A DNA stretch of 64,000 nt, from NCBI GenBank assembly GCA_017436955.1, contig JAFSCD010000012.1, forward strand, positions 51,993-115,992, in the 5' to 3' direction. The notes under the pieces were generated by a model, which was not told where the DNA came from, did no database searches, and worked only from the letters and a program-made list of their open reading frames with translations. This stretch comes from Oscillospiraceae bacterium. Lineage in GTDB: Bacteria > Bacillota > Clostridia > Oscillospirales > Oscillospiraceae. A program made the position numbers and the translations under genes. How positions within the stretch are numbered: position 1 is the first letter of the stretch; the number at the start of each line of letters is the position of its first letter. Shown here piece after piece: positions 33,786 through 49,898 of this stretch.

Positions 33786-34817
33786 TTAGCCGTAGATCAG
33801 GGACTCGGCGTAACGGGTGGCGATGACGCCCTCGGGCTCGCCGGTAGCCTTGGATTCGGACAGAATGTGCTCGATGGAACCGTAGATGTTGTCCACCTTT
33901 GCCAGAACGGCGTCCTTGTTGTAAGGACCGTCAACCTCTGCCGCGGCATTGATAACGCCGCCGCCGTTGATGACGAAGTCAGGAGCGTAGAAGATGCCAC
34001 GAGCCTTCAGTGCCAGACCGGATGCATCGTCCAGGATCTGGTTGTTTGCGCCGCCGGCAACAGCCTTGCACTTCAGCTGCGGAATGGTGGTGGGATTCAG
34101 GATCGCGCCCATGGCGTTGGGGGAGAAAATGTCGCACTCCTGGGAGTAGATGGCCTCGGTGGGGACGATGGTTGCACCGAATTCGGCAACAGCTCTTGCG
34201 GCAGCTTCCTGATTGCTGCGGTTGGCGATGATCAGCTTGGCGCCGGACTCGTGCAGCAGACGGCACAGATCGTAGCCGACCTTACCCAGACCCTGCACAG
34301 CGATGGTCAGACCTTCCAGATCGTCACGACCCAGAGCCACCTTGGCGGTAGCGCGGATGCCCTGCCATACACCGCGGGCGGTGAAGGGAGAGGGGTCGCC
34401 GCTGTTCTGGGGCAGACCGCAGATGTGGTTGGTCTTGCGCAGCATGATCAGCGCATCGTCGCAGGTGGTGTTCACGTCCTCGGCGGTGATATAGTCGCCG
34501 CCCAGGTTGTTGACAGCTTCACCGAAGGCCTCGAACATAGCCTCGGTCTTTGCAGAGGGATCGGCGATGATAACGCCCTTGCCGCCGCCGTGGGGCAGAC
34601 CGGCAACTGCGTTCTTGTGGGACATACCGCGGCTCAGGCGCAGAACGTCAAACAGCGCGTCGTCGTAGGATGCGTAGGGGAACAGACGGCAGCCGCCGAT
34701 GGCAGGACCCAGATTGGTGTTGTGCACGGCGATGATGGCCTTCAGACCGGCCTTCTCGTTGTTGATGAACAGAACTTTCTCGTGGCGGTATTTGCTCATT
34801 TCGGTCATTGCATTCAT
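33786..34817 (-). CDS. Leu/Val/Phe dehydrogenase (ELFV family)
   Basis: IAVHNTNLGPAIGGCR, LSRGMSHK, GGGKGVI, TAEDV, QGLGKVG, GANNQ, PDFVINGGG. Confidence 0.92.
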   Translation of the reverse strand: MNAMTEMSKYRHEKVLFINNEKAGLKAIIAVHNTNLGPAIGGCRLFPYASYDDALFDVLRLSRGMSHKNAVAGLPHGGGKGVIIADPSAKTEAMFEAFGEAVNNLGGDYITAEDVNTTCDDALIMLRKTNHICGLPQNSGDPSPFTARGVWQGIRATAKVALGRDDLEGLTIAVQGLGKVGYDLCRLLHESGAKLIIANRSNQEAAARAVAEFGATIVPTEAIYSQECDIFSPNAMGAILNPTTIPQLKCKAVAGGANNQILDDASGLALKARGIFYAPDFVINGGGVINAAAEVDGPYNKDAVLAKVDNIYGSIEHILSESKATGEPEGVIATRYAESLIYG

Positions 34818-34852: not shown

Positions 34853-35392
34853 TTACACGGTATATTCTTTGCCCAGGGTCAGCGCCTTCATATTCAGCTC
34901 GACCAGGGCGGCTTTGGTGGGAGGCACCAGCTTTTCCACCACGGTAGCCGTACCCTCAAAGGACAGCTCGGGGTGATTCTGCAGCAGGTGACCCATAATG
35001 ATCATATTGGCCAGAGTGGGGATGTGCTGCTCTCTTGCCATAGCGGTTGCAGGAATGTAGAACACCTGCACGTCGGTGCGTGCCACCTGCACGCCGATCA
35101 GGGAAGAATCTACATAAACTTGTCCGCCGGGAACAACGGTATCCACATATTTCTGCAGAGAAGGCAGATTCATCGCCACCAGCACGTCGGGGCTGGTCAC
35201 GATGGGAGAGCCTACCGGCTGCTCGGAAATGATGACGTTGCAGTTGGCGGTGCCGCCGCGCATTTCCGGACCGTAGGAAGGCAGCCAGGATACCTGCAGC
35301 TCTTCCAAAAGACCCTTGTAAGCCAGGAATTTACCGGCAAACAGAATGCCCTGTCCGCCGAAGCCGGCAATCAGAATTTGCGTCGTTTTCAT
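34853..35392 (-). CDS. 2-oxoacid:ferredoxin oxidoreductase gamma subunit (Vor-type)
   Basis: [26 protein letters not shown]. Confidence 0.93.
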
Positions 35393-36147
35393 TTGGCATC
35401 CTCCTTTGCAGCGGAGCGATCCTTATAAACGCCGATGGGGTAGTAGGGAAGCATATCGCTTTCCACCCATTCCAGCGCCTTCTGGGGAGTCATACCCCAG
35501 TTGGTGGGGCAGGCGGAAACCACTTCCACCAAGCTGAAGCCTTTGCCCTCGATCTGGTTCTGGAAGGCCTTTTTGATGGCTTTTTTGGCAGCGTTTACAT
35601 TTTTGACGTTGTTGACAGCCACACGTGCCAGATACTCGGGACCCTCCAGAGTGGACAGCATTTCGCATACCTTGATGGGCCAGCCGCAATGGTTTACATC
35701 GCGACCGTAGGGGCTGGTCTGGGTGACCTGACCGGGCAGGCTGGTGGGAGCCATCTGACCGCCGGTCATACCGTAAATGGCGTTGTTGACGAAAATTACG
35801 GTGATATTTTCATTTCTCGCGGCTGCGTGGACAGTTTCTGCCATGCCGATGGAAGCCAGGTCGCCGTCACCCTGATAGGTGAAGACCACATTCTCCGGAC
35901 GGCAGCGCTTGATGCCGGTGGCAACAGCGGGTGCGCGACCGTGAGCCGCTTCGATCATATCGCAGGCGAAATAGTCATACGCCATAACGGCGCAGCCTAC
36001 GGGAGCAACACCGATGGTCTTGCCTTCGATGCCCAGTTCGTCCATGACCTCGGCAACCAGCCGGTGGATGATGCCATGGGGACAGCCGGGACAGTAATGG
36101 AAGGGGAGGTCCGTCAGGGACTTGGGTTTTTGAAAAACAACTGCCAT
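35389..36147 (-). CDS. 2-oxoacid:ferredoxin oxidoreductase beta (TPP-binding) subunit (Vor-type)
   Basis: [18 protein letters not shown]...NN TPP motif, YGMTGGQ, CPTNW. Confidence 0.94.
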
Positions 36148-36149
36148 GA

Positions 36150-37211
36150 TCAGAACACTCCTTTCTCGGCGTTACGGATGCTTTCCAGCACCTCGTCGGG
36201 GCTGGGGATCATACCGCCGCAGCGGTTGCACAGCGCTACGGGGCGCTTACATTCGGTTGCCAGGCGCACATCCTCGATCATCTGACCCATACTCAGCTCT
36301 ACACTGACGAAGCCCTTGACCTGATCGGCAGCCTTATTCAGCACAGCCTTGGGGAAGGGCCACAAAGTGATGGGACGGATCAGACCTACCTTGATGCCCT
36401 CCTGCCGTGCGGCAACGATGGCATTCTTGGCGACACGGGAAGCGATACCGAAGGCGACGACGCAGATATCTGCATCCTCCATCATATATTCTTCCCACAT
36501 TGCCTCGGTCTGTTCAATGTGCTTATAGCGCTCGTAGCGCTGGAAATTGGTAACCTCCAGAGCCTCGGGCTTTAAGTACAAGGAATTGACGACGTTGTGC
36601 TTGCGCTCGCCGTTGGTGCCGGTCAGCGCCCAGGGCTTTTCGTAGGTTTCGATCTCGGCATCCTCGAAAGAGATGGGCTCCATCATCTGACCGATGGTGC
36701 CGTCTGCCAGGATCATAGCGGTCATCCGGTATTTGTCTGCCAGATTAAAGCCCTTGATGGTCAGGCTAGCCATTTCCTGCACGGAGGCGGGTGCCAGCAC
36801 GATCATCCGGTAGTCGCCGTGACCGCCGCCCTTGGTAGCCTGGAAATAATCGGACTGGGAGGGTTGAATACCGCCCAAGCCGGGACCGCCGCGCTGGACA
36901 TTGACCACCAGCGCCGGTACGTCAGAGCCGGCAATATAGCTTAAGCCCTCTGCCTTCAGGGAGATTCCGGGGCTGGAGGAGGAGGTCATAACACGCATAC
37001 CGGCAGCGGCAGCGCCGTAGACCATATTGATGGAAGCGATCTCGCTTTCTGCCTGCAGGAAAACGCCGCCAATCTTGGGCATTTTCTTTGCCATATAGGC
37101 AGCAATTTCTGTTTGGGGGGTGATGGGGTAGCCGAAGTAATGGCGGCAGCCGGCACGGATGGCGGCTTCAGCGATGGCTTCGTTGCCCTTCATAAGAATT
37201 CTCTGCGCCAT
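36150..37211 (-). CDS. 2-oxoisovalerate-type 2-oxoacid:ferredoxin oxidoreductase alpha subunit
   Basis: [48 protein letters not shown]. Confidence 0.92.
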
Positions 37212-37221
37212 ATAAGCCTCC

Positions 37222-37428
37222 TTATTTCTCAACGGTGATGATGCAGTCCGGGCACATAGTGGCACAGAATGCACAACCGATGCATTTTTCCATATCGGTC
37301 ATAACTGCAGGGGAGTAGCCCTTGCTGTTGATCTGGTCCTCGGCGATCACCAGAAGCTTTTTGGGACAGGCGGATACGCACAGGCCGCAGCCTTTGCAAA
37401 GATCCGTATTGAATGTAACTTTTGCCAT
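37222..37428 (-). CDS. 2[4Fe-4S] ferredoxin / OFOR delta subunit
   Basis: CKGCGLCVSACP and CIGCAFCATMCP. Confidence 0.93.
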   Translation of the reverse strand: MAKVTFNTDLCKGCGLCVSACPKKLLVIAEDQINSKGYSPAVMTDMEKCIGCAFCATMCPDCIITVEK

Positions 37429-37463: not shown

Positions 37464-38147
37464 TTACAGCTTCTGATCGGGGAGATCGAAATATTTTTCC
37501 TGCAGCTGCAGGGGGAATACATTGGGAATGTGCTTGCTGACTGCCGGGGCAAGATCGGCACGCACGGTGGTCATAAAGACGGGCAGCCCGGTCATAGTGC
37601 TTAAGCTTTCGGCATAGCCGGTGCTTTCCAGCACGGTGCTTCCGTCGGTCAGCGGACCCAAATGGGAATTGTTGACGATGTCGGTAAATTTCAGACCGCA
37701 GGCGGCTTCGATTTCCCGCATCACATCCAGCGCATCCGCCGGAGTCTGGGTCAGCGGACGGTAGCAGTTGGCTACGAAAACCATCCGGTAGTTGTTTTCC
37801 TTTTGGATAAAGGGAACGTACCGACCCAGGGCGTAGGCGCCCCGGTCATCACCGCCGATATCCATCACGCCGAAGCTGCTGCGATCCTCCACCAGCCGGT
37901 AGGCCTCTGCCGGCAGCGCAGGCAGATCTACGTTGGAGTTGGCAAACTGGGGCGCGATCAGCTCCACGCCGGCATCCTTTAGCTGCCGGGCGCTGTCCGC
38001 GGTGCGAAAATAGGGATTGACGATATCCAGATCCGCAATACAGACCTTTTTGCCCTCTTTTGCCAGGTGCAGAGCATAATTTACAGCGATATTTGTCTTG
38101 CCGCTGCCGTAATGGCCGGCAAATAAAGTAAGACGCTTGTGGTCCAT
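37464..38147 (-). CDS. P-loop NTPase (MinD/CobQ-like), function unknown
   Basis: Walker A GHYGSGKT, DLDIVNPYFR, DIGGD. Confidence 0.8.
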   Translation of the reverse strand: MDHKRLTLFAGHYGSGKTNIAVNYALHLAKEGKKVCIADLDIVNPYFRTADSARQLKDAGVELIAPQFANSNVDLPALPAEAYRLVEDRSSFGVMDIGGDDRGAYALGRYVPFIQKENNYRMVFVANCYRPLTQTPADALDVMREIEAACGLKFTDIVNNSHLGPLTDGSTVLESTGYAESLSTMTGLPVFMTTVRADLAPAVSKHIPNVFPLQLQEKYFDLPDQKL

Positions 38148-38151
38148 AAAA

Positions 38152-40437
38152 TTACAACTGCTTTCTGATAATCTTGCCGCTGACGGTTTTGGGCAGGCTT
38201 TCCTTAAATTCCACGATACGGGGGTACTTGTAAGGCGCGGTTCTGCTCTTGACGTAGTTTTGGATCTCCTTGCGCAGCTCGTCGGTGCCTTCGTAGCCCT
38301 TGATCAGCACGATGCTGGCCTTGACTACCTGACCGCGAACCTCATCCGGTGCGGCGGAAACGCCACATTCCAGAACGTAGGGTAGCTCCATAATGACGTT
38401 TTCGATCTCAAAGGGTCCGATACGGTAGCCGGAGGACTTGATCACATCGTCCACACGACCCACGTACCAGAAGAAACCGTCCTCATCCTTCCACGCCAGA
38501 TCGCCGGTGTGGTAGAAGCCGTCACGCCAGGTCTCCGCGGTGATCTCCTCGTTGCCCTCGTAGCAATAGGCAAGACCGCAGGGCAGACCCTGGGAAATAT
38601 CAATGCAGATCTCGCCGGTCTCGCCGGATTCCACCTCGGCGCCTTCGGCGTCCAGCAGCTTTACGTTGTACAGCGGAACGGGCTTGCCCATAGCGCCGAA
38701 CTTGTGGCTGTCACCGGCCAGATTGCCGATGATCAGGGTGCTTTCGGACTGACCGAAGCCTTCCATGATCTTCAGACCCGTGGAAAGCTCAAACTGACGG
38801 AACACCTCGGGATTCAGCGCTTCGCCGGCGGTGGAGGCGTGCTGGATGGAGCTCAGGTCGTACTTGCTCAGATCCTGCTTGATCAACATTCTGTACATCG
38901 TAGGCGGTGCGCAGAAGGTGGTGATGTTGTACTTTGCGAACATGGGCAGGATCTTCTCGCCGTCGAAACGGTCAAAATCATACACGAAGATGGCTGCCTC
39001 GCAAAGCCACTGACCGTAGATCTTACCCCAGGAGGACTTTGCCCAGCCGGTGTCGGAAATGGTCAGGTGCAGGCCGTCGGGGTTGACCCGGTGCCAGTAT
39101 TTGGCGGTGATAAAGTGACCCAGAGGGTACTTGTAGTTGTGGGCTGTCAGCTTGGGATAGCCAGAGGTGCCGGAGGTGAAGAACATCAGCATGGGGTCGC
39201 TGCCGCAGGGCGCATCTTCCGCTCTTGCAAAGTGGGAGCTGAAGATGGGATATTCTTCGTTAAAATCGTGCCAGCCATCCCGGCTGCCGTTTACTAAAAT
39301 CTTATGCTTCAGACCCGGGCAGGAAGCAGCGGCTGCATCCACGGCATCGGCAACGATACCGTCGGCGGTGCAAAGAATGGCGCTGACGTTACCGGCCTGG
39401 AAGCGGTAAGTAAAGTCCTTTTCCAGCAGCTGATTGGTGGCAGGGATCGCCACAGCGCCCAGCTTGTGCAGCGCCAGTACAGCAAACCAGTACTGATAGT
39501 GGCGCTTTAGCACCAGCATCACACGGTCGCCCCGCTTGATGCCCAAACTCTTGAAATAGTTGGCAACTCTTGCGGATTCCTTCTTCATATCCCGGAAGGT
39601 AAAGCGCCGCTCGGTGCCGTCCTGCGCGACGTACAGCATCGCCAGCTTATCCGGCTTGCTGCGACCCAGCGCATCCACCACATCGAAGGCAAAGTTGAAT
39701 TTGTCCTCATCGTGGAAGGCGATCTTTTGCAGCTTGCCGTTTTCCACCGTGGGGTCGATGAAATTGCGGTAGATCCGGGGCTTTTTGTCCGGCGTCAGAC
39801 CCGTACCGGGCGTTTCCACAGCGGCAGCGGCTTCGCCGTCACGGGCAGCGGAATTGCTCAGCACAAAGGCGTAGAACGTACAGTCCTCGCCGCCGACGGC
39901 GATCATACCGTGGGGCGTACCGGAATCGTAGTAAATGCTGTCACCGGGGTGGAGGATCTCGGTCTTGCTGCCGATCTGGATGCGCATGGTACCGGAGATC
40001 ACGATGTCACATTCCTGACCCTCGTGGGTAACCAGCTCAATGTCCTTGTGTTCTGCACCGTCGTGGTACTTCAGCTCCATATACAGGGGCAGACCGATAC
40101 GGTTGCGGAAATCCGCCGCCAGGTTGTAGCCCACCATATGATGGGCTTCCTCGATGCGCTGACCTTCGCCTCGCCTTGTTAATGCATAGGAGCGCAGCTT
40201 CGCGCTGCGGCCTTCCAGCAGGTCGGAAAAGTCAACGCCGAAAATCAGAACGCACCGATACAGAAAAGCGATGCTCATATTCCGTTCACCGGCTTCGCAG
40301 CTGCGGTATTCTTCTACGGAAAGATCTGTCCGGGCAGCCATTTCTTCTTCAGAAAGTCCGTGCACCAGCCGAAGTTCCCGGATTCTGGCGGCGACCTCTT
40401 TAATTTTGTAGTCTGCTCCGGTCATATTTTGTTTCAT
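38152..40437 (-). CDS. XRE-HTH + cupin + AMP-forming acyl-CoA synthetase fusion (ACS2)
   Basis: N-terminal RIRELR...HTH, HEGQE...PHGM cupin; FTSGTSGYPK, EGFGQSE, TGD, GRVDD, LPKTVSGKI. Confidence 0.9.
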   Translation of the reverse strand: MKQNMTGADYKIKEVAARIRELRLVHGLSEEEMAARTDLSVEEYRSCEAGERNMSIAFLYRCVLIFGVDFSDLLEGRSAKLRSYALTRRGEGQRIEEAHHMVGYNLAADFRNRIGLPLYMELKYHDGAEHKDIELVTHEGQECDIVISGTMRIQIGSKTEILHPGDSIYYDSGTPHGMIAVGGEDCTFYAFVLSNSAARDGEAAAAVETPGTGLTPDKKPRIYRNFIDPTVENGKLQKIAFHDEDKFNFAFDVVDALGRSKPDKLAMLYVAQDGTERRFTFRDMKKESARVANYFKSLGIKRGDRVMLVLKRHYQYWFAVLALHKLGAVAIPATNQLLEKDFTYRFQAGNVSAILCTADGIVADAVDAAAASCPGLKHKILVNGSRDGWHDFNEEYPIFSSHFARAEDAPCGSDPMLMFFTSGTSGYPKLTAHNYKYPLGHFITAKYWHRVNPDGLHLTISDTGWAKSSWGKIYGQWLCEAAIFVYDFDRFDGEKILPMFAKYNITTFCAPPTMYRMLIKQDLSKYDLSSIQHASTAGEALNPEVFRQFELSTGLKIMEGFGQSESTLIIGNLAGDSHKFGAMGKPVPLYNVKLLDAEGAEVESGETGEICIDISQGLPCGLAYCYEGNEEITAETWRDGFYHTGDLAWKDEDGFFWYVGRVDDVIKSSGYRIGPFEIENVIMELPYVLECGVSAAPDEVRGQVVKASIVLIKGYEGTDELRKEIQNYVKSRTAPYKYPRIVEFKESLPKTVSGKIIRKQL

Positions 40438-40483
40438 AGAGCACCTCGTAAAATACTTTTTGAATCAAATGCTTAACAGAAAA

Positions 40484-40512
40484 AGTGTAACATTTATAGG
40501 GGTTGTTGTCAA
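40484..40512 (-). promoter_or_regulatory. Sigma-A promoter for ACS2-NTPase-vor-dehydrogenase
   Basis: Minus strand TTGACA (40512-40507), 17 nt, TACACT with an extended TG. Confidence 0.65.
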
Positions 40513-40581
40513 GAAATGTCTGGCAGACAGTTGCACAAAAACTGCCCCATCTATGCTGCTTTTTGCCCTTGCCTGCAGGGA

Positions 40582-42849
40582 TCAAAGCTTGTTGCGCTGG
40601 ATCTTGCCGGAGATGGTCTTGGGCAGCTCATCCCGGAACACCACGATACGGGGGTACTTATAGGGAGCGGTGTGCTGCTTGACGTAGTTCTGGATCTCTT
40701 TTTTCAGCGCTTCCGTGCCTTCCACGCCGGGTACCAGCACGATACTGGCCTTAACCACCTGACCGCGCACCTCGTCGGGCGCAGCGGAAACGCCACACTC
40801 CAGCACGTAGGGCAGCTCCATAATGGTGGATTCGATCTCGAAGGGTCCGATCCGGTAGCCGGAGGACTTGATCACATCGTCAGCGCGACCCACATACCAG
40901 TAGTAGCCATCCTCGTCACGCCAGGCCACGTCGCCGGTGTGATACATACCGTCGTGCCATACGCTGTCGGTGGCTTCCTGGTTGCGGTAATAGCCCAGAA
41001 ATACGCCGCAGGTAGGCTTGGGATCGGTGCGGATGACGATCTCACCGTTGACACCGTCCTCCACGGGGTTGCCGTCGGCATCCACGATGTCGATGCCGTA
41101 GCCGGGAACGGGCTTGCCCATAGCGCCGGGCTTGATGTTGGCGCCGTAAAGATTGGCGATGCCCAGGGTCATTTCCGTCTGACCGAAGCCTTCGTGGATC
41201 CGCAGACCCGTGGCCTTTTCAAACTGGTAGAACACCTCCGGATTCAGCGCTTCGCCGGCGGTGGTGGCGTGATGGATGGAAGAAAGATCGTATTTGCTCA
41301 GATCCTGCTTGATGAGCATTCTGTACATCGTAGGCGGTGCGCAGAAGGTGGTGATGCCGTACTTGGCGAACATAGGCAGGATCTTTTCTGCATCAAAACG
41401 GTCAAAGTCATAGGTAAACACAGCACCCTCGCACAGCCACTGACCGTAGAGCTTGCCCCACAGAGCCTTGCCCCAGCCGGTCTCGGAGATGGTAAAGTGC
41501 AGACCGTCGCGCTCGCACAGATGCCAGTATTTGGCGGTGACGTAGTGACCCAGCGCGTACTTGTAGGAATGGGTAGCCATCTTGGGATAGCCGGTGGTGC
41601 CGGAGGTGAACAGCATCAGCATAGGATCGCTGCCGCAGGGCGCATCCTCGGTGCGGACGTAGCGGCGGCTGAAGAGCTTGTATTCCTCGTTATAATCGTG
41701 CCAGCCCGCACGGCTGCCGCCTACCAGGATCTTGGTCAGGGGCATATTGGCAGACCTTTCTGCCAGCTCCACCTGCTCGGCGGTGTTGCCGTCAGCGGTG
41801 CAAAGCACGGCGGACACGTCGGCAGCCTGGAAGCGGTATACAAAATCGTGCTCCATCAGCTGGTTGGTGGCGGGGATGGCGATGGCGCCCAGCTTGTGCA
41901 AACCCAAAATGGCAAACCAGAACTGATAATGGCGCTTCAGCACCAGCATGACCCGGTCACCCTTCTTGATGCCCAGAGATTTGAAATAGTTGGCGCTCTG
42001 GGAAGAAGCGTCCTTCATATCCTTAAAGGTGAAGCGGCGCTCGGTCATATCACCTGCGATATGCAGCATCGCCAGCTTTTCCGGCTCCTGACGGGCGATG
42101 GCGTCCACGGTGTCGAAAGCGAAGTTGTAGCTCTCTTCGTCGGAGAAGGTCATACCCTGGAAAATGCCGTTTTCGTCCTCCTGCGCATTGACAAACCGGT
42201 TGCACAGCAGCTTCTGCTCCCGCTTGCCGGTGTGGCTCTGACCGATGTACAGAGGCTGGTCGGTGGTGTCAGATGCCATGATCATGGAAAGGAACACACA
42301 ATCCGCGCCATCCACGGCGATCATACCGTGGGGGGTGGAGGAGCGGTAGAAAACGGAGTCGCCCTCGTGCAGGACCTCCTCGTGGTCGCCGATCCGGATG
42401 CGCATAGCGCCCTTGACCACCAGGTTAAACTCCTGACCGGCGTGGGTGGTGGTATGGATGGGCTTGTTCTGCAGTTCGGCAGAATACTGATAGGTGACCC
42501 AGTAGGGGGTAGCCAGCTTCTTGCGGAACATAGGAGCCATATCCTGAATGGTGATGCCATCCTCGCTGGCGGTTACAAGACCCTTGCCCCGGCGGGTAAC
42601 GGTATAGCCGGAAAGCTTGGCGCTCTGACCTTCCAGAAGAACGGTGATCTCCACACCGAAAACCTTGGCGCACTTGTGCAAAAATGTAAAGGGCAGATCC
42701 ACAGTGCCGGATTCATACTGGCGGTAAATGTCTTCAGACACCTCCGTTTGCTCAGCCATTTTATGTGTGCTGTAGCCCAGAATTTCTCGCATACCTCTGA
42801 TGCGCGTTGCGATATCCATAAGCTGAGTAGAGGTATTTGTGTTGGTCAT
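40582..42849 (-). CDS. XRE-HTH + cupin + AMP-forming acyl-CoA synthetase fusion (ACS1)
   Basis: RIRGMRE HTH, HAGQEF...PHGM cupin; FTSGTTGYPK, EGFGQTE, TGD, LPKTISGKI; paralogue of ACS2. Confidence 0.9.
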   Translation of the reverse strand: MTNTNTSTQLMDIATRIRGMREILGYSTHKMAEQTEVSEDIYRQYESGTVDLPFTFLHKCAKVFGVEITVLLEGQSAKLSGYTVTRRGKGLVTASEDGITIQDMAPMFRKKLATPYWVTYQYSAELQNKPIHTTTHAGQEFNLVVKGAMRIRIGDHEEVLHEGDSVFYRSSTPHGMIAVDGADCVFLSMIMASDTTDQPLYIGQSHTGKREQKLLCNRFVNAQEDENGIFQGMTFSDEESYNFAFDTVDAIARQEPEKLAMLHIAGDMTERRFTFKDMKDASSQSANYFKSLGIKKGDRVMLVLKRHYQFWFAILGLHKLGAIAIPATNQLMEHDFVYRFQAADVSAVLCTADGNTAEQVELAERSANMPLTKILVGGSRAGWHDYNEEYKLFSRRYVRTEDAPCGSDPMLMLFTSGTTGYPKMATHSYKYALGHYVTAKYWHLCERDGLHFTISETGWGKALWGKLYGQWLCEGAVFTYDFDRFDAEKILPMFAKYGITTFCAPPTMYRMLIKQDLSKYDLSSIHHATTAGEALNPEVFYQFEKATGLRIHEGFGQTEMTLGIANLYGANIKPGAMGKPVPGYGIDIVDADGNPVEDGVNGEIVIRTDPKPTCGVFLGYYRNQEATDSVWHDGMYHTGDVAWRDEDGYYWYVGRADDVIKSSGYRIGPFEIESTIMELPYVLECGVSAAPDEVRGQVVKASIVLVPGVEGTEALKKEIQNYVKQHTAPYKYPRIVVFRDELPKTISGKIQRNKL

Positions 42850-42879: not shown

Positions 42880-43135
42880 TAAAAAAACGCCTCAAGAAAA
42901 CTCTTGAGACGAGAATAAACCCGCGGTACCACTCAAATTGCGGCTTGCGCCGCCACTCATCGGACTCTATCAAGTCCTATCCTTTAACGCAGGCATACGG
43001 GAGCGCTTACTGAAAAACCGTTCAGCACTCCGGCTCGGAAGGGATGGGTACTTAGATCCTGCGCTGCCGGCTCACACCAACCGCCGGCTCTCTGAAAACG
43101 ATAAGATCTGACCGTCTTCGTCAAAGCTTTTTACC
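42880..43135 (-). promoter_or_regulatory. T-box riboswitch, Ile (ATC) specifier, upstream of ACS1
   Basis: Minus strand: AGAGAG/GGTGTGA stem-I loops, c-ATC-c-CTTC-CGA (ATC at 43045-43043), T-box GAGTGGTACCGCGG (42934-42921), terminator CGTCTCAAGAG...CTTGAGGCG-T7. The specifier context matches the ileS T-box in this window. Confidence 0.85.
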
Positions 43136-43310: not shown

Positions 43311-43577
43311 ATAAAGACAGTGAAGGAAAATCTGCCCTTTCGTATACTGCTCCAGAGAGCCGGCGGTTGGTGTGAGCCGGTGCAAAAGGAATTGGCAGTC
43401 TGATTCCCGAGTTGGTCTTGTGAACGCATCCGCCAGTAATGAGATCCGGGCGCTCCCGTTACAGAGCTAGGGCTTGTTGGAGCCCGATGAGGGATCCCCT
43501 TTTCGGGGGATAAGCAGGGTGGTACCGCGAATTTACCGATTCGTCCCTGAGATCAGAGGATCTCAGGGCTTTTTTAT
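43311..43577 (+). promoter_or_regulatory. T-box riboswitch, Leu (CTG) specifier
   Basis: AGAGAG/GGTGTGA loops, t-CTG-a-TTCC-CGA (CTG 43400-43402), AGGGTGGTACCGCG (43516-43529), terminator CCCTGAGATC-AGAG-GATCTCAGGG-C-T7. Confidence 0.85.
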
Positions 43578-43593
43578 TGAAGGAGGACTTACT

Positions 43594-45006
43594 ATGAGAC
43601 AGATCCGAATCAGCGATGTGACAATGAAGCAGGCGACCGGAGAGTTCAGCCTGAGCTTTAAGGAGAAGATCGAGCTATCCAAGCTGCTGGATAAGCTGGG
43701 TGTCAGCGTGATCGAGCTGGAGGGCATTACCAGCGCCCGGATCGATGCTCTGCGGATCAAGTCCATCGCCGCAGCCGTTACCGCCAGCACCGTTGCCGTG
43801 CCGGTACAGCTGGAGACGGAAAGCGTAAATCAGACCTGGAGCGCCCTGAAGGAGGCAAAGAAGCCCCGTTTGCAGGTCTGCGCACCGGTCAGCTCCGTGC
43901 AGATGGAGTATCTGTTCCATAAAAAGCCCGATGCTATGCTGAAGGCAATTTCGCAGACCGTAGCCGCCTGCCGTGGGGTTTGCGCGGATGTGGAATTTAT
44001 TGCCGACGATGCAACCCGTAGCGACGGCGCGTTCCTGAGTCAGGCAATCAGCGCTGCCGTGGAAGCCGGTGCTACCACCGTTACGCTGTGCGACGCCGCC
44101 GGCACGATGCTGCCGGATGAGTTCGCTGCCTTTGTAGCCGAGGTTTGCGCCGCCAATCCCTGCCTTGCCGGTGTGGATGTGGGCGTTTGCTGCTCCGATG
44201 GGCTGAAAATGGCAGATTCCAGCGCCGTTGCCGCCATCCGTCAGGGCGCAGCGGAGGTGAAGACCGCTGCTTATCCCGTGGGTAGCGCGTCTCTTGCCAA
44301 CGTCGCCCGGATCCTTACCGCCCGGGGTGAAAGCCTGGAGGCGGCCTGCACCGTCAGCAGCACCCAGCTGGATCGCATCACAGAGCAGATCGCCTGGATG
44401 TGCCAGACCGGTCGCAGGAAGACCTCTCCTTTTGACAATGGCGTCCGTGATGAGGATCCCGGTATGTATCTGACCGTTCACGATGATTTGGGCAGCGTTA
44501 TCAAGGTCGTGGAGCATCTGGGCTACGATCTGTCCGAGGAGGACGCCCAGAAGGTGTTTGAAGCCTTCCGCACCATCGCCGCCAAGAAGGAAAAGGTCAG
44601 CGCCAAGGAGCTGGATGCCATCGTGGCTTCCGCAGCGATGCAGGTGCCGCCTACCTATACGCTGAAAACCTACGTGATCACTGCCGGCAATACCGTTTCC
44701 GCGACAGCCCATTTGAGCCTAATCAAGGATGGTGCTGTGCTGGAGGGCGTTTGTATCGGCGACGGCCCCATTGATGCCGCGTTTCTGGCGATCGAGCAGA
44801 TCACCGGCTGCCACTATGAGCTGGATGATTTCCAGATCCAGGCGGTGACCGAGGGTCGTGAGGCTATGGGTCAGACCGTGGTGAAGCTGCGCTCCGGCGG
44901 CAAGGTATACTCCGGTCGGGGTATCTCTACGGATATCGTGGGTGCCAGCATCCATGCCTACATCAGCGCCCTGAACAAGATCGTCTATGAGGAGGAAACG
45001 GTATGA
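43594..45006 (+). CDS. LeuA (2-isopropylmalate synthase)-like protein with degenerate catalytic motifs and an intact-looking C-terminal regulatory domain
   Basis: ISDVTMKQ in place of DTTLRDGEQ; VCCSDG in place of HxHND; C-terminal GDGPIDA...AVTEGREAMG...STDIVGASIHAYISALNKI. Confidence 0.8.
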   Translation: MRQIRISDVTMKQATGEFSLSFKEKIELSKLLDKLGVSVIELEGITSARIDALRIKSIAAAVTASTVAVPVQLETESVNQTWSALKEAKKPRLQVCAPVSSVQMEYLFHKKPDAMLKAISQTVAACRGVCADVEFIADDATRSDGAFLSQAISAAVEAGATTVTLCDAAGTMLPDEFAAFVAEVCAANPCLAGVDVGVCCSDGLKMADSSAVAAIRQGAAEVKTAAYPVGSASLANVARILTARGESLEAACTVSSTQLDRITEQIAWMCQTGRRKTSPFDNGVRDEDPGMYLTVHDDLGSVIKVVEHLGYDLSEEDAQKVFEAFRTIAAKKEKVSAKELDAIVASAAMQVPPTYTLKTYVITAGNTVSATAHLSLIKDGAVLEGVCIGDGPIDAAFLAIEQITGCHYELDDFQIQAVTEGREAMGQTVVKLRSGGKVYSGRGISTDIVGASIHAYISALNKIVYEEETV

Positions 45007-47516
45007 AACTTTCCTTTTCTACCCGGGGCTGGGCAGACCTTTCCTGGGAAGAAATGATGCAGACCGCGCTGGAAATGGGCTTTTCCGGCATTGAGGTCTA
45101 CAATCTGCCGAAATTCGATCCGATGCTGGATCGGAGCGGTCCTTTTCATAAATATCAGGCAGCGGCAACGGCACGACAGCTGCGGGAAAAGAAGCTGTGC
45201 ATCCCTTGCTTTGATACCTCCTATGATCTTTCGCTGGATGATAGCTGCGTCTCTTATCTGCTTTCCCTGCTGGAGGTAGCCCACAATACCCAGGTGTCTT
45301 ATGTGGCAGCCTGCGCGCTGACTGACAATGAGGAGCAGGTGGTGCGAAATCTGCAGGCACTGCTGCCGGCTGCTGAAAAGCTGCAGGTAACGCTGCTGCT
45401 GAAAACCAGCGGCATTTACGCCGATACCGGCAGACTGCGCAATTTGCTCAATACCTTCGCCAGCGACTATATGGGCGCGCTGTGGGATGTGCATCACACC
45501 TACCGTGACTTTGGCGAAAGCGGCGATACCACCATCAAAAATCTGGGCAGCTATGTGTGCCACGTCCACCTGCGTGACTCCGATGATACCGGCGTCTATC
45601 AGGTCATCGGCGAGGGCACTATGCCCATTGACGATGTGATGCGTGCGCTGTCCTCGGTCAATTATGACGGCTTCCTCTCGCTGGAATGGAAGCCGGTGTG
45701 GCAGGAGGAGCTGCAGGACCGGGATGTGATCTTCCCGTATTATGTAAACTATATGAGTCGCTTCGGCAGCCCCAGAAGCCAGAAGAAATCCCTCTACTTT
45801 AACCACGATGGCTCCGGTCAGTATATCTGGAAAAAGGACGAGCTGATCGACCTGACCTTCTCCCAGGTGCTGGACCGTGTGGCGCAGGAATTCCCGGATC
45901 AGTACGCCTTCAAGTACACCACGCTGGACTATACCCGGACTTACCGCCAGTTCCAGAAGGATGTGGATGATTTTGCCCGTGCTCTGGTATCTATGGGCGT
46001 CAAGGCCGGCAGCAAGGTGGCCATCTGGGCGACCAATGTACCAGCCTGGTACATCACTTTCTGGGCGACTACCAAGATCGGCGCGGTGCTGGTAACGGTA
46101 AATACCGCCTATAAGATCCACGAGGCGGAGTATTTGCTGCGCCAGTCCGATACCCATACTCTGGTGATGATCGAAAACTGTCTGGATTCTGACTACCGTG
46201 GCATCATCAACGAGCTGTGTCCCGAGCTTGCCACCACCAAGCCCGGTGAGCCGCTGCACTGCAAGCGGCTGCCCTTCCTGCGGAACGTCATCACCGTTGG
46301 CTTCCGGCAGCCCGGCAGCCTGACCTTCGAGGAGGCTATGGCACGCAAGGAGCTGGTAAGCCCGGAGCAGGTGGCACGGATGGCGGCTGCCGTCCAGCCC
46401 AACGATGTGTGCAATATGCAGTACACCTCCGGCACCACGGGTTTCCCCAAAGGTGTTATGTTAACCCACTACAATGTAGTGAACAACGGCAAATGTATCG
46501 GTGACCGGATGGGTCTGTCCACCGCCGACCGTATGATGATCCAGGTGCCTATGTTCCATTGTTTCGGCATGGTATTGTCTATGACCTCGTCTATGACCCA
46601 CGGCGCTACGCTGTGTCCGCTGCCCTATTTCTCCGCGAAGTCCTCGCTGGCGTGCATCAATCAGGAGCGGATCACCTGCTTCAACGGCGTGCCGACAATG
46701 TTCATCGCCATGTTCAACCATCCCGATTACCGCAAGACGGATTTCTCCCATATGCGTACCGGTATTATGGCGGGCGCAGGCTGTCCGCCGGAGCTGATGC
46801 GCCGCGCAGCCCAGCCGGATGAGATGAATATGACCGGCATCGTCAGCGTTTACGGTCAGACGGAATCTGCCCCCGGCTCTACTATGTCCGCCTGGGACGA
46901 TCCGCTGGATGTGCGCACCAATACGGTGGGCTATGCGTTCCCCCACGTGCGCTGCAAGATCATCGACCCGGATACCGGTCTGGAAGTGCCGGACGGTGTC
47001 AACGGCGAGTTCTGCTCCCGTGGTTATAACACTATGAAGGGCTATTACAAAATGCCCCAGGCCACCAAGGATACGGTGGATGCGGAGGGCTGGCTCCACT
47101 CCGGCGACCTGGCCTGTCGGGACAGCGCAGGCAATTACCGCATTACCGGACGGCTGAAGGATATGATCATCCGCGGCGGTGAGAACATTTACCCCAAGGA
47201 GATCGAGGAATTTATCTACACCCACCCTGCGGTGCAGGATGTGCAGGTCATCGGCGTGCCGGATAAGAAGTACGGCGAGGAGATCCTGGCAAGCATTGTG
47301 CTTAAGACCCCCGGCAGCGTGAGTGTGGAGGAAATGACCGCCTATATCAAGGCCAGTATGGCACGGCACAAGGTACCCCGGTATATTGAATTTGTGGACA
47401 GCTTCCCCATGAACGCGGCAGGCAAAGTCCTCAAGTACAAGATGCGCGAGGATGCCGCCAGACGTCTGGGTCTGGTTGGCGACGGCGCAGACACCGCCGG
47501 CAACCCGGGCAAGTAA
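45003..47516 (+). CDS. Xylose-isomerase-like TIM barrel + AMP-forming acyl-CoA synthetase fusion (ACS3)
   Basis: N-terminal ~255 aa MKLSFST...GFSGIE...WDVHH...HVHLRD...LSLEW; C-terminal QYTSGTTGFPKG, YGQTE, SGD, GRLKD, GGEN, GKVLK. ATGA overlap with the upstream stop. Confidence 0.85.
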   Translation: MKLSFSTRGWADLSWEEMMQTALEMGFSGIEVYNLPKFDPMLDRSGPFHKYQAAATARQLREKKLCIPCFDTSYDLSLDDSCVSYLLSLLEVAHNTQVSYVAACALTDNEEQVVRNLQALLPAAEKLQVTLLLKTSGIYADTGRLRNLLNTFASDYMGALWDVHHTYRDFGESGDTTIKNLGSYVCHVHLRDSDDTGVYQVIGEGTMPIDDVMRALSSVNYDGFLSLEWKPVWQEELQDRDVIFPYYVNYMSRFGSPRSQKKSLYFNHDGSGQYIWKKDELIDLTFSQVLDRVAQEFPDQYAFKYTTLDYTRTYRQFQKDVDDFARALVSMGVKAGSKVAIWATNVPAWYITFWATTKIGAVLVTVNTAYKIHEAEYLLRQSDTHTLVMIENCLDSDYRGIINELCPELATTKPGEPLHCKRLPFLRNVITVGFRQPGSLTFEEAMARKELVSPEQVARMAAAVQPNDVCNMQYTSGTTGFPKGVMLTHYNVVNNGKCIGDRMGLSTADRMMIQVPMFHCFGMVLSMTSSMTHGATLCPLPYFSAKSSLACINQERITCFNGVPTMFIAMFNHPDYRKTDFSHMRTGIMAGAGCPPELMRRAAQPDEMNMTGIVSVYGQTESAPGSTMSAWDDPLDVRTNTVGYAFPHVRCKIIDPDTGLEVPDGVNGEFCSRGYNTMKGYYKMPQATKDTVDAEGWLHSGDLACRDSAGNYRITGRLKDMIIRGGENIYPKEIEEFIYTHPAVQDVQVIGVPDKKYGEEILASIVLKTPGSVSVEEMTAYIKASMARHKVPRYIEFVDSFPMNAAGKVLKYKMREDAARRLGLVGDGADTAGNPGK

Positions 47517-47770: not shown

Positions 47771-48988
47771 TTATCGAATACCGTACTTTTCGATGATGTA
47801 GTCCATATCCTTATCGCCTCTGCCGGAGAGGTTGATGAGCACGCTGCCCTTACCCATCCGCTGTGCCAGCTTGATGCCGTAGGCAACGGCGTGGGCGCTT
47901 TCGATGGCGGGGATAATGCCCTCCATACGCGCCAGCTCATAGAAGGCGTCGATGGTCTCCTCGTCATTGATGACATCGTACTTGACACGACCGCAATCCC
48001 GTAAGAATGCGTGTTCAGGACCGGAGGAGGGGTAATCCAGACCGCTGGCAACGGAGTAGACCGGCGCGGGATCACCGTTTTCGTCCTTCAGCATAATGCT
48101 GTTGAAGCCGTGCATAATGCCCTCGGAGCCGTACTGCAGGCTGGCGGCGTGGTCGCCGGGTGTGGCACCGCGACCCAAAGGCTCGATGCCGTAGATCTCC
48201 ACAGGGTCATTCAGGAAGCCGGAGAAGAAGCCGGCGGCATTGGAACCACCGCCCACGCAGGCAACGATGGCATCCGGCAAATGACCGGTCATATCCACAA
48301 ACTGCGCCCGGGCTTCTTCGCCTACCACGTGCTGGAAATCCCGAACCATCATGGGGAAGGGGTGCGGACCCACCACGGAGCCGATGCAGTAGATGCAGTC
48401 CTTATATTCCTTGGCGTAGGCGGCAAACGCGGCATCCACAGCTTCTTTCAAAGTCTGCTGACCTTCGGTGACTTCTACCACGTTGGCACCCAAAATTTTC
48501 ATACGTGCCACATTGGGCGCCTGCTTTTTGATGTCCTCGGCGCCCATATAAATGTCACATTCCAGACCGAAATAGGCGGCGGCAGTAGCCATCGCCACGC
48601 CGTGCTGACCGGCGCCGGTCTCGGCGATGACCTTCTTCTTGCCCATATACTTGGCAAGCAGCACCTCGCCCATGCAGTGATTCAGCTTGTGGGCGCCGGT
48701 GTGATTCAAGTCCTCGCGCTTGACGTAAAGCTGCACGCTGCCCAGCTTGTTGGACAGCCGCTCCAGATGGGAAACCGGGGTGGGGCGACCCTGGAACTCC
48801 TTGCGAATCCGGCGCAGCTCGGCAATAAACTGCCGGGATTGGGCGATGGTAAAATAGGCCTGGGTGATCTCCTCCATAGCCTTCTGCAGCTCCGGGGCGA
48901 TATAGCAGCCGCCGTATTTGCCGAAAAAGCCGCCCTCGTCGGGGTAGTGACGGAAATAGGTCTCAAAATCCACATTGTTCAGAATCAT
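47771..48988 (-). CDS. trpB: Tryptophan synthase beta chain (stand-alone; no trpA in window)
   Basis: [12 protein letters not shown] (PLP lysine), [31 protein letters not shown]. Confidence 0.96.
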
Positions 48989-49390: not shown

Positions 49391-49564
49391 AATGATATAT
49401 CGCTTGTGCGATATGATATACGGCGTTGCCGTATGATATATTTCCACTTTGTGAAAATATGAAATAATATCCGTTCCTTAATATGCCGCAGGCATATATC
49501 ATCCACCGAAGGTGGATATCATATCGAAGATATATCACCCGTTCCGCAAGGAACGGATATCATT
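49391..49564. repeat. Multi-hairpin element punctuated by TGATAT/ATATCA
   Basis: Terminal inverted repeat AATGATAT...ATATCATT; TGATATA at 49393, 49414, 49434 and TGAAATA at 49460; ATATCA at 49496, 49516, 49532, 49557; short hairpins between them. Confidence 0.8.
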
Positions 49565-49565
49565 G

Positions 49566-49598: not shown

Positions 49599-49683
49599 TG
49601 GTGGGGGAGGACGGATTCGAACCATCGAAGCGATACGCAGCAGATTTACAGTCTGTCCCCTTTGGCCACTCGGGAACTCCCCC
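49599..49683 (-). tRNA. tRNA-Tyr (GTA)
   Basis: GGGGGAGTTCCCGAGTGGCCAAAGGGGACAGACT-GTA-AATCTG...GGTTCGAATCC...CTCCCCCACCA; long variable arm; encoded CCA. Confidence 0.97.
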
Positions 49684-49822: not shown

Positions 49823-49898
49823 TGGAGCCGGTAGACGGACTCGAACCCCCGACCTACTGATTACAAATCAGTTGCTCTACCAACTGAGCTATACCGGC
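49823..49898 (-). tRNA. tRNA-Thr (TGT)
   Basis: GCCGGTATAGCTCAGTTGGTAGAGCAACTGATT-TGT-AATCAGTAGGTCGGGGGTTCGAGTCCGTCTACCGGCTCCA. Confidence 0.97.

Follow-up and report, generated by a model that had tools for sequence, protein, structure and literature searches.

The DNA that we analysed, hereafter the window, is a 64,000-nt stretch of the forward strand of an Oscillospiraceae bacterium (GCA_017436955.1, contig JAFSCD010000012.1, positions 51,993-115,992), and all coordinates given below are window positions. At 43594-45006 on the plus strand lies an open frame of 470 aa whose product, by Pfam, NCBIfam, alignment, an AlphaFold model and Foldseek, is a catalytically degenerate homologue of LeuA (2-isopropylmalate synthase), for which we use the name LeuAx. 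The next gene (45003-47516, +) encodes ACS3, an 837-aa protein in which Pfam recognizes a xylose-isomerase-like TIM barrel, with a degenerate metal site, fused to an AMP-forming acyl-CoA ligase. The initial annotation had described the LeuAx frame as intact, its codon usage as normal and its stop as overlapping the ACS3 start, and all three descriptions hold: the frame is open throughout, its GC3 is 0.722 (vs. 0.73-0.79 in four neighbouring genes), and the TGA stop overlaps the ATG of ACS3 as ATGA (45003-45006). We chose the ATG at 43594 as the start because it is preceded, at a distance of 8 nt, by an AAGGAGG ribosome-binding site and agrees with the starts of all homologues; a 510-aa ORF with a TTG start was rejected as the gene, in that it spans the riboswitch lying upstream.

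This riboswitch is a T-box (43311-43551, +; RF00230, 114.8 bits, above the gathering score) with a CUG (Leu) specifier at 43400-43402, and a terminator hairpin with its T-run can be read from the sequence at 43545-43575 (+). A second T-box, in divergent orientation (42902-43133, -; 116.6 bits), has the specifier AUC (Ile). The pairing recurs among the 77 loci examined: the T-box before LeuAx has a Leu specifier in 70 (CTG in 40, CTC in 30), and the divergent one reads ATC in all 26 where the pattern matched. If the Leu T-box were read in the -1 frame, its specifier would be TCT or CCT. The discriminator base A73 is carried by tRNA-Leu and not by tRNA-Ser, and because a UGGU T-box fits a tRNA with A73, the specificity is for Leu rather than for Ser.

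The Ile T-box operon, on the minus strand, comprises genes for two XRE-cupin-acyl-CoA ligases (40582-42849 and 38152-40437; Pfam and NCBIfam), each with MbcS as its best NCBIfam match, below cut-off; a P-loop NTPase-like protein (37464-38147; Pfam), which in most of the neighbourhoods accompanies the vor genes; a small, vorD-like ferredoxin-like subunit whose translation has two Cys-rich cluster motifs (37225-37428); the alpha (VorB), beta and gamma subunits of a branched-chain 2-oxoacid:ferredoxin oxidoreductase, VOR (34853-37211; VorB scores 550 bits against the NF005507 cut-off of 399); and an amino-acid dehydrogenase of the Glu/Leu/Phe/Val family (33786-34817; Pfam and NCBIfam). The substrates of MbcS are branched short acids, and two ligases, VOR and a dehydrogenase together suit a route from branched acids to amino acids. 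As the initial annotation stated, no leuBCD is adjacent to LeuAx among the ORFs of the window. In the host genome (82% complete) we found no leuB above cut-off, no second LeuA_dimer domain, and no ilvB, ilvC or ilvD; and among the 80 LeuAx genomes tested (of 97), VorB is present in 76 and leuB above cut-off in 12.

Several side observations concern these neighbours. The tandem fusions of XRE-HTH, cupin and ligase (38152-42849, -) have an N-terminal module that may sense a ligand or bind DNA; the best NCBIfam match of the dehydrogenase (33786-34817, -) is the tryptophan dehydrogenase ScyB, below cut-off; a lone trpB (47771-48988, -) lies just beyond ACS3, and aromatic amino-acid salvage may share the locus. 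A Gut-1 RNA motif stands next to tRNA-Tyr and tRNA-Thr genes (49491-49565, 49599-49683 and 49823-49898, all -).

LeuAx possesses both the TIM barrel and the allosteric domain of LeuA, as indicated by Pfam (HMGL-like at residues 6-250, LeuA_dimer at 335-463), by the AlphaFold model (pLDDT 86.9), in which an entire barrel is followed by disorder at 273-289, a bundle of helices and a regulatory fold, and by Foldseek, whose top structural matches are MAM and IPM synthases. The degenerate DRE-TIM barrel (residues 1-270; 43594-44403, +) is followed by a short variable linker (44404-44463, +; pLDDT below 50 at 273-289) in place of LeuA subdomain I, by a helical bundle resembling subdomain II in the model, with an AxxAxQVP junction specific to LeuAx (44464-44643, +), and by the regulatory domain (44644-44994, +), in which the motifs GDGPIDA, AVTEGREAMG and STDIV are kept. 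Against the curated LeuA models, LeuAx scores about half of the cut-off (286 bits vs. 532 for NF002086; 254 vs. 599 for TIGR00973), and an intact LeuA used as a control clears both (752 and 704, respectively).

According to the initial annotation, the DRE-TIM motif DTTLRDGEQ had become DVTMKQ and the metal-binding HxH had become CCS. Alignment to 3rmj, 3ewb and 6e1j bears this out: DVTMKQ (43615-43632) runs from D8 to K12 and Q13 and is followed by a two-residue gap, and the metal-binding HCH corresponds to C199-C200-S201 (44188-44196). Also missing are the GERAGN loop, the substrate Thr and some 35-40 aa of subdomain I (HESGIH...TYE), a deletion that includes the catalytic His and Tyr. In BjMAM (6e1j family), D90, H288 and H290 are described as the metal ligands, and activity as requiring R89 (R89K is inactive), Q93, H388 and Y399 (PMC11532901). 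In the 6e1j alignment these ligands correspond to Q13, C199 and S201 of LeuAx, R89 to K12 and Q93 to a gap; H388 and Y399 are deleted, and the substrate residue T257 is replaced by A168. IPMS itself is described as needing its accessory subdomain (PMC9860122).

These losses extend across the family. We aligned 15 intact LeuA with 142 other rows, five of which (497-516 aa, with near-intact motifs and grouping with intact LeuA in the tree) were dropped, leaving 137 LeuAx; the residue numbers of the M. tuberculosis enzyme that serve as alignment labels are, apart from R80, E218, H379 and Y410, ones that we assumed. Whereas all 15 controls keep the R, D, H and H residues and GERAGN, 123 of the 137 LeuAx keep none of the three metal ligands, 14 keep one, and none keeps two or more; neither GERAG nor HE[SA]G occurs in any of the 137. 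The comparison with characterised LeuA that had been proposed as a check thus finds every catalytic element but one Glu lost, and the claim that LeuAx is a pseudoenzyme is strongly supported. Judged from its residues, LeuAx is very probably not a synthase.

Catalytic erosion could also mark a gene on its way out, and we looked for relaxed selection or a broken frame as signs of a pseudogene. The frame is open, and over 20 independent, non-overlapping close pairs, the per-domain dN/dS that the initial annotation had suggested computing falls from 0.111 in the barrel to 0.066 in subdomain II and 0.058 in the regulatory domain (0.040 in the ligase domain of ACS3), i.e., selection is purifying and, within LeuAx, strongest on the regulatory domain. 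The gene is not decaying. We find it barely credible that LeuAx still works as an isopropylmalate or citramalate synthase or, alternatively, that the gene is a pseudogene in decay: its top family and fold matches are indeed LeuA, a single close ORF among 77 is interrupted (at 267 aa), and genome G106 has a truncated, barrel-only form of 280 aa (L112:9129-9968), ATGA-coupled to ACS3 and accompanied in the genome by an intact LeuA, but this reading has against it the catalytic losses, the halved scores, the scarcity of leuB in the host genomes, the dN/dS of 0.06-0.11 and the some 110 full-length clusters at 50% identity found among the best 150 LeuAx matches.

The family is widespread. The best 120 matches have 72-99% identity to the query, and LeuAx occurs in 32 of 150 genomes sampled from the family (31 full, one truncated); in the class sample, 66 of 398 genomes have a full-length match of LeuAx length and two more a partial one, with 20 verified by sequence, and outside the class it occurs in two of 300 genomes of the phylum sample. 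Carriers with a name are chiefly MAGs of Oscillospiraceae and Lachnospiraceae, a good number of them from the ruminant gut. In a quick tree, a single branch (SH-aLRT 100) splits 32 LeuAx rows from 29 LeuA rows. In two metatranscriptomes of one study (word shares 0.09 and 0.05), only short contigs of relatives appeared at 85%, with no evidence of LeuAx expression. As a separate observation, a highly similar 462-aa subtype (loci L146-L156) occurs across many different families, which suggests horizontal spread.

A barrel without its metal site may nevertheless have acquired a new, metal-independent catalysis in the same pathway. Such a reading draws on the near-invariance of the altered motif among close relatives (D8 and T10 in 196 of 196, K12 and Q13 in 195 of 196), on the retention of E134, D139, R142 and D167, and on the barrel dN/dS of 0.11, from which it follows that the barrel does something. 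However, in distant LeuAx, position 12 is variously R, K, C, A or S and position 13 is E, Q, a gap, D, K or N; because K12 and Q13 are kept in close but not in distant relatives, LeuAx has no constant new site, and we rejected these two residues as one. The barrel is, moreover, the least conserved of the domains and absent in nine genomes, and the route predicted below requires no additional step. We consider a new activity highly improbable; the dead barrel is likely to be a dispensable scaffold.

Conservation in LeuAx is inverted relative to intact LeuA: mean pairwise identity of barrel and regulatory domain is 0.60 vs. 0.43 in intact LeuA and 0.34 vs. 0.59 in LeuAx. The C-terminal allosteric domain, which the initial annotation had called well conserved, is indeed so, with GxGPxDA, AVTxGxxAxG and STDI common to LeuAx and intact LeuA. 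These motifs, which we take to line the leucine pocket, are kept almost throughout the 142 rows (G389 in 141, G391 in 141, P392 in 131, D394 in 134, G426 in 140 and D447 in 141). Charged positions conserved specifically in the LeuAx regulatory domain (H407, E409, D411, D412, R433, E466 and E467) are candidates for residues of a new interface. Because citramalate synthases employ the same regulatory domain for Ile, the pocket sequence by itself cannot separate Leu from Ile. The link to leucine gains independent support from the CUG or CUC specifier, from the relatives of the ligase in isovalerate clusters, and from the existence of forms consisting of the regulatory domain only.

The relatives of the ligase bear on what ACS3 activates. 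ACS3 scores 673 bits against NF009233, below its cut-off of 832. Relatives of its ligase domain matched in 157 records, from which five plasmid regions were opened: in three, the relatives, at 44-47% identity, lie beside leucine/isovalerate catabolic genes (isovaleryl-CoA dehydrogenase is named in two, and a yng-like cluster is present in one), and the other two lack such a context. In a screen of P. putida, one gene of such a leucine/isovalerate cluster is described as possibly activating isovalerate (10.1101/2020.07.04.188060). ACS3 is, from this context, a probable isovalerate-CoA ligase. A sugar-phosphate isomerase beside a Paracoccus ligase was considered as a precedent for the ACS3 fusion and rejected, because it is convergent and belongs to another operon.

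The ACS3 barrel (45003-45788, +) itself resembles a pseudoenzyme domain, the second at this locus. Degeneration of its metal site is frequent (position 134 is K in 63 and E in 41 of 104 sequences); ligase-only homologues have a nearly complete metal motif, the ACS3 of the window has lost part of it, and L146-L156 have lost all of it. In the ligase domain, co-varying residues at ACS3 positions 545-677 (e.g., GAGCP vs. GSPCP) define two subtypes, possibly with different acid preference.

The initial annotation had called ACS3 the coupled ligase; the coupling is tight, and the junction is conserved in close, family and class loci alike. ACS3 directly follows LeuAx in all 80 close loci (picked by similarity to the query, two of them from one contig), with a gap of -4 or -1 in 65; in 30 of 32 family loci, the exceptions being one contig end and one separated pair; in 20 of 20 class loci; and in both loci from outside the class. 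All 32 LeuAx genomes of the 150-genome family sample contain ACS3, and 11 further genomes have ACS3 without a full LeuAx. The active enzyme genetically linked to LeuAx is therefore ACS3, which stands beside it with the exceptions of genome G010, where the two genes are non-adjacent and on different contigs, and of a ligase-only clade. A search for fusions of LeuAx or its regulatory domain to the ligase found none among 227 candidates of 824-2350 aa, which is a weak test. Inter-protein mutual information between LeuAx and ACS3 (104 paired rows, an effective number of about 40) gave clade-level noise only and was discarded.

Conceivably, LeuAx senses leucine but targets VOR, one of the XRE-cupin ligases or a transporter instead; its place before ACS3 would then merely reflect a common Leu T-box. 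The presence of VorB in nearly all LeuAx genomes, often with the vor genes nearby, would suit this. We think it improbable: the vor and XRE-ligase genes change place or are missing at many loci, and VorB is missing from four of the 80 LeuAx genomes, whereas the junction of LeuAx with ACS3 is fixed, mostly as a stop/start overlap, and persists even where LeuAx is reduced to its regulatory domain.

Natural variants separate the parts of this arrangement. Ten of the 150 family genomes have ACS3 alone, with a T-box motif directly upstream in seven and an intact LeuA elsewhere in six; the ligase therefore works without LeuAx, which is an accessory and not an obligate subunit. These ten ACS3 group together in a single clade (support 0.946), and the metal motif of their barrel is better preserved; the trees are midpoint-rooted only and do not fix the order of the ligase-only and coupled forms. 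The eleventh genome without a full LeuAx, G101, has the LeuA allosteric domain only, as a 154-aa gene overlapping the ACS3 start. In nine of 12 genomes of one genus, a regulatory-domain-only gene (124-167 aa) overlaps the ACS3 start as ATGA (L131:635-1099 and L197-L204); eight are close forms and one is a divergent 124-aa form, and eight of the nine have an insert of about 20 residues in the domain. In one further member of the genus, a full LeuAx occupies this position behind vorG; the remaining two yielded no match. The ACS3 barrel is also eroded in the eight close forms, and a search ahead of the regulatory-only genes yielded no T-box motif. These genes may share one origin. When metagenomes were searched with the isolated domain, 21 loci came back, none of them a close standalone form (three were full LeuAx-ACS3 pairs and the rest ordinary LeuA-like or partial genes). 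The regulatory domain is, in sum, the part of LeuAx that has been kept most frequently and most strongly.

Coupling and selection would look no different if LeuAx partnered ACS3 in another capacity: it might activate or stabilise the ligase, bind its acid substrate, or sense a different ligand, for example Ile, Val or 2-oxoisocaproate. Isovalerate resembles the side chain of leucine, co-induction with the ligase under leucine starvation also suits an activator, and the barrel-only form in G106 suggests a structural role; dead subunits are, moreover, described as mediating activation by leucine in GdhA and by AMP in APRTh (10.1101/2025.10.31.685773). Against these roles, the LeuAx pocket motifs agree with those of intact LeuA, the ten ligase-only genomes run the ligase without LeuAx, and end-product inhibition is described as the ancestral job of the LeuA regulatory domain (PMC9860122). 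We hold a partnership of this kind to be unlikely.

We consider it rather likely, from the sequence evidence, that LeuAx is a pseudoenzyme subunit that confers leucine feedback on ACS3, as the initial annotation had proposed. Read from gene content, the route would begin with ACS3 converting isovalerate, an acid produced by fermentation in the gut, to isovaleryl-CoA, continue with the reductive carboxylation of isovaleryl-CoA to 2-oxoisocaproate by VOR, and end with the amino-acid dehydrogenase or a transaminase converting 2-oxoisocaproate to leucine. VOR and the dehydrogenase would be common to the Ile and Val branches, which would leave ACS3 as the only leucine-specific step, one that consumes ATP and sequesters CoA. 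When leucine runs short, the T-box would turn on the LeuAx-ACS3 operon; when leucine is plentiful, it would be bound between the two regulatory domains of a LeuAx dimer, as in intact LeuA, and the signal, passed in trans to ACS3, would switch the ligase off. Feedback of the kind that LeuA gave the canonical pathway would in this way be restored in trans.

More broadly, the balance of evidence tips slightly toward a redeployment of the leucine-sensing domain of LeuA in trans, in which a dead LeuA, or in one genus the isolated domain, docks on an unrelated AMP-forming ligase and supplies end-product feedback for a route from isovalerate to leucine, and toward the locus being an undescribed, fully regulated module for converting isoacids to branched-chain amino acids, widespread in gut and rumen Clostridia. 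The module would be fully regulated because the two sister ligases have their own XRE-cupin modules. Neither the LeuAx family nor its gene cluster is described in the full-text literature searched, which covers few subscription journals, and the search returned no account of the paired Leu/Ile T-boxes or of a feedback subunit for the reductive-carboxylation route.

LeuAx is a real, conserved pseudoenzyme family, and if its role is leucine feedback, an allosteric module has moved from the first enzyme of one pathway to an unrelated enzyme with the same end product, with stages still visible in genomes, i.e., ligase alone, ligase with a full dead LeuA, and ligase with the regulatory domain only. 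Candidate genes and control points could then be named for the isoacid-dependent synthesis of amino acids by anaerobes of the gut and rumen, which has long been inferred from physiology. Annotation is affected as well: LeuAx was present in 32 of the 150 genomes sampled from the family and in about 66 of the 398 from the class, and labelling it leuA would falsely imply the canonical leucine pathway.

Among known systems, LeuAx most resembles short-form LeuA (TIGR00973/NF002086; 3ewb, 3rmj, 3eeg, and the Leu-bound M. tuberculosis 3fig) in its domain order, barrel fold (Foldseek rmsd 1.5-2.0 A over about 275 residues of 3ewb, 3rmj_B and 3eeg), regulatory motifs and placement under a Leu T-box. 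Unlike LeuA, it is without the catalytic Arg, the three metal ligands, GERAGN and subdomain I, is shorter (453-497 vs. 501-517 aa), is coupled to a ligase instead of to leuBCD, occupies a separate branch and has its domain conservation inverted. The AMP-binding proteins of liu and yng clusters (PRK12583-like) share 44-47% identity with ACS3 over the whole ligase domain and lie beside leucine/isovalerate catabolic genes, whereas ACS3 has an additional N-terminal TIM barrel, scores below the NF009233 cut-off and stands in an anabolic, T-box-controlled context. The metabolic precedent comes from the rumen, where the synthesis of Ile from 2-methylbutyrate by reductive carboxylation has been proposed for Methanobrevibacter ruminantium (PMC2812497); the steps of branched-acid reductive carboxylation, i.e., activation of the acid, ferredoxin-dependent carboxylation and amination, have matching genes clustered at the LeuAx locus.

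For the proposed mode of action, the closest parallels are bacterial pseudoenzyme regulatory subunits: ADLP, Thermus GdhA and APRTh, of which ADLP is described as regulating a CoA transferase of short-chain fatty acid metabolism (10.1101/2025.10.31.685773), and HisZ of ATP phosphoribosyltransferase, described as mediating end-product feedback (PMC9734150). Each is a dead enzyme paralogue that still binds a ligand and controls a metabolic enzyme in trans, as is predicted for LeuAx; the likeness is functional and implies no sequence relationship. Their complexes have been demonstrated, whereas that of LeuAx with ACS3 is predicted. In LeuAx, unlike in these systems, it is the allosteric domain of the donor, and not the substrate site, that is retained, with an AMP-forming ligase as the presumed target.
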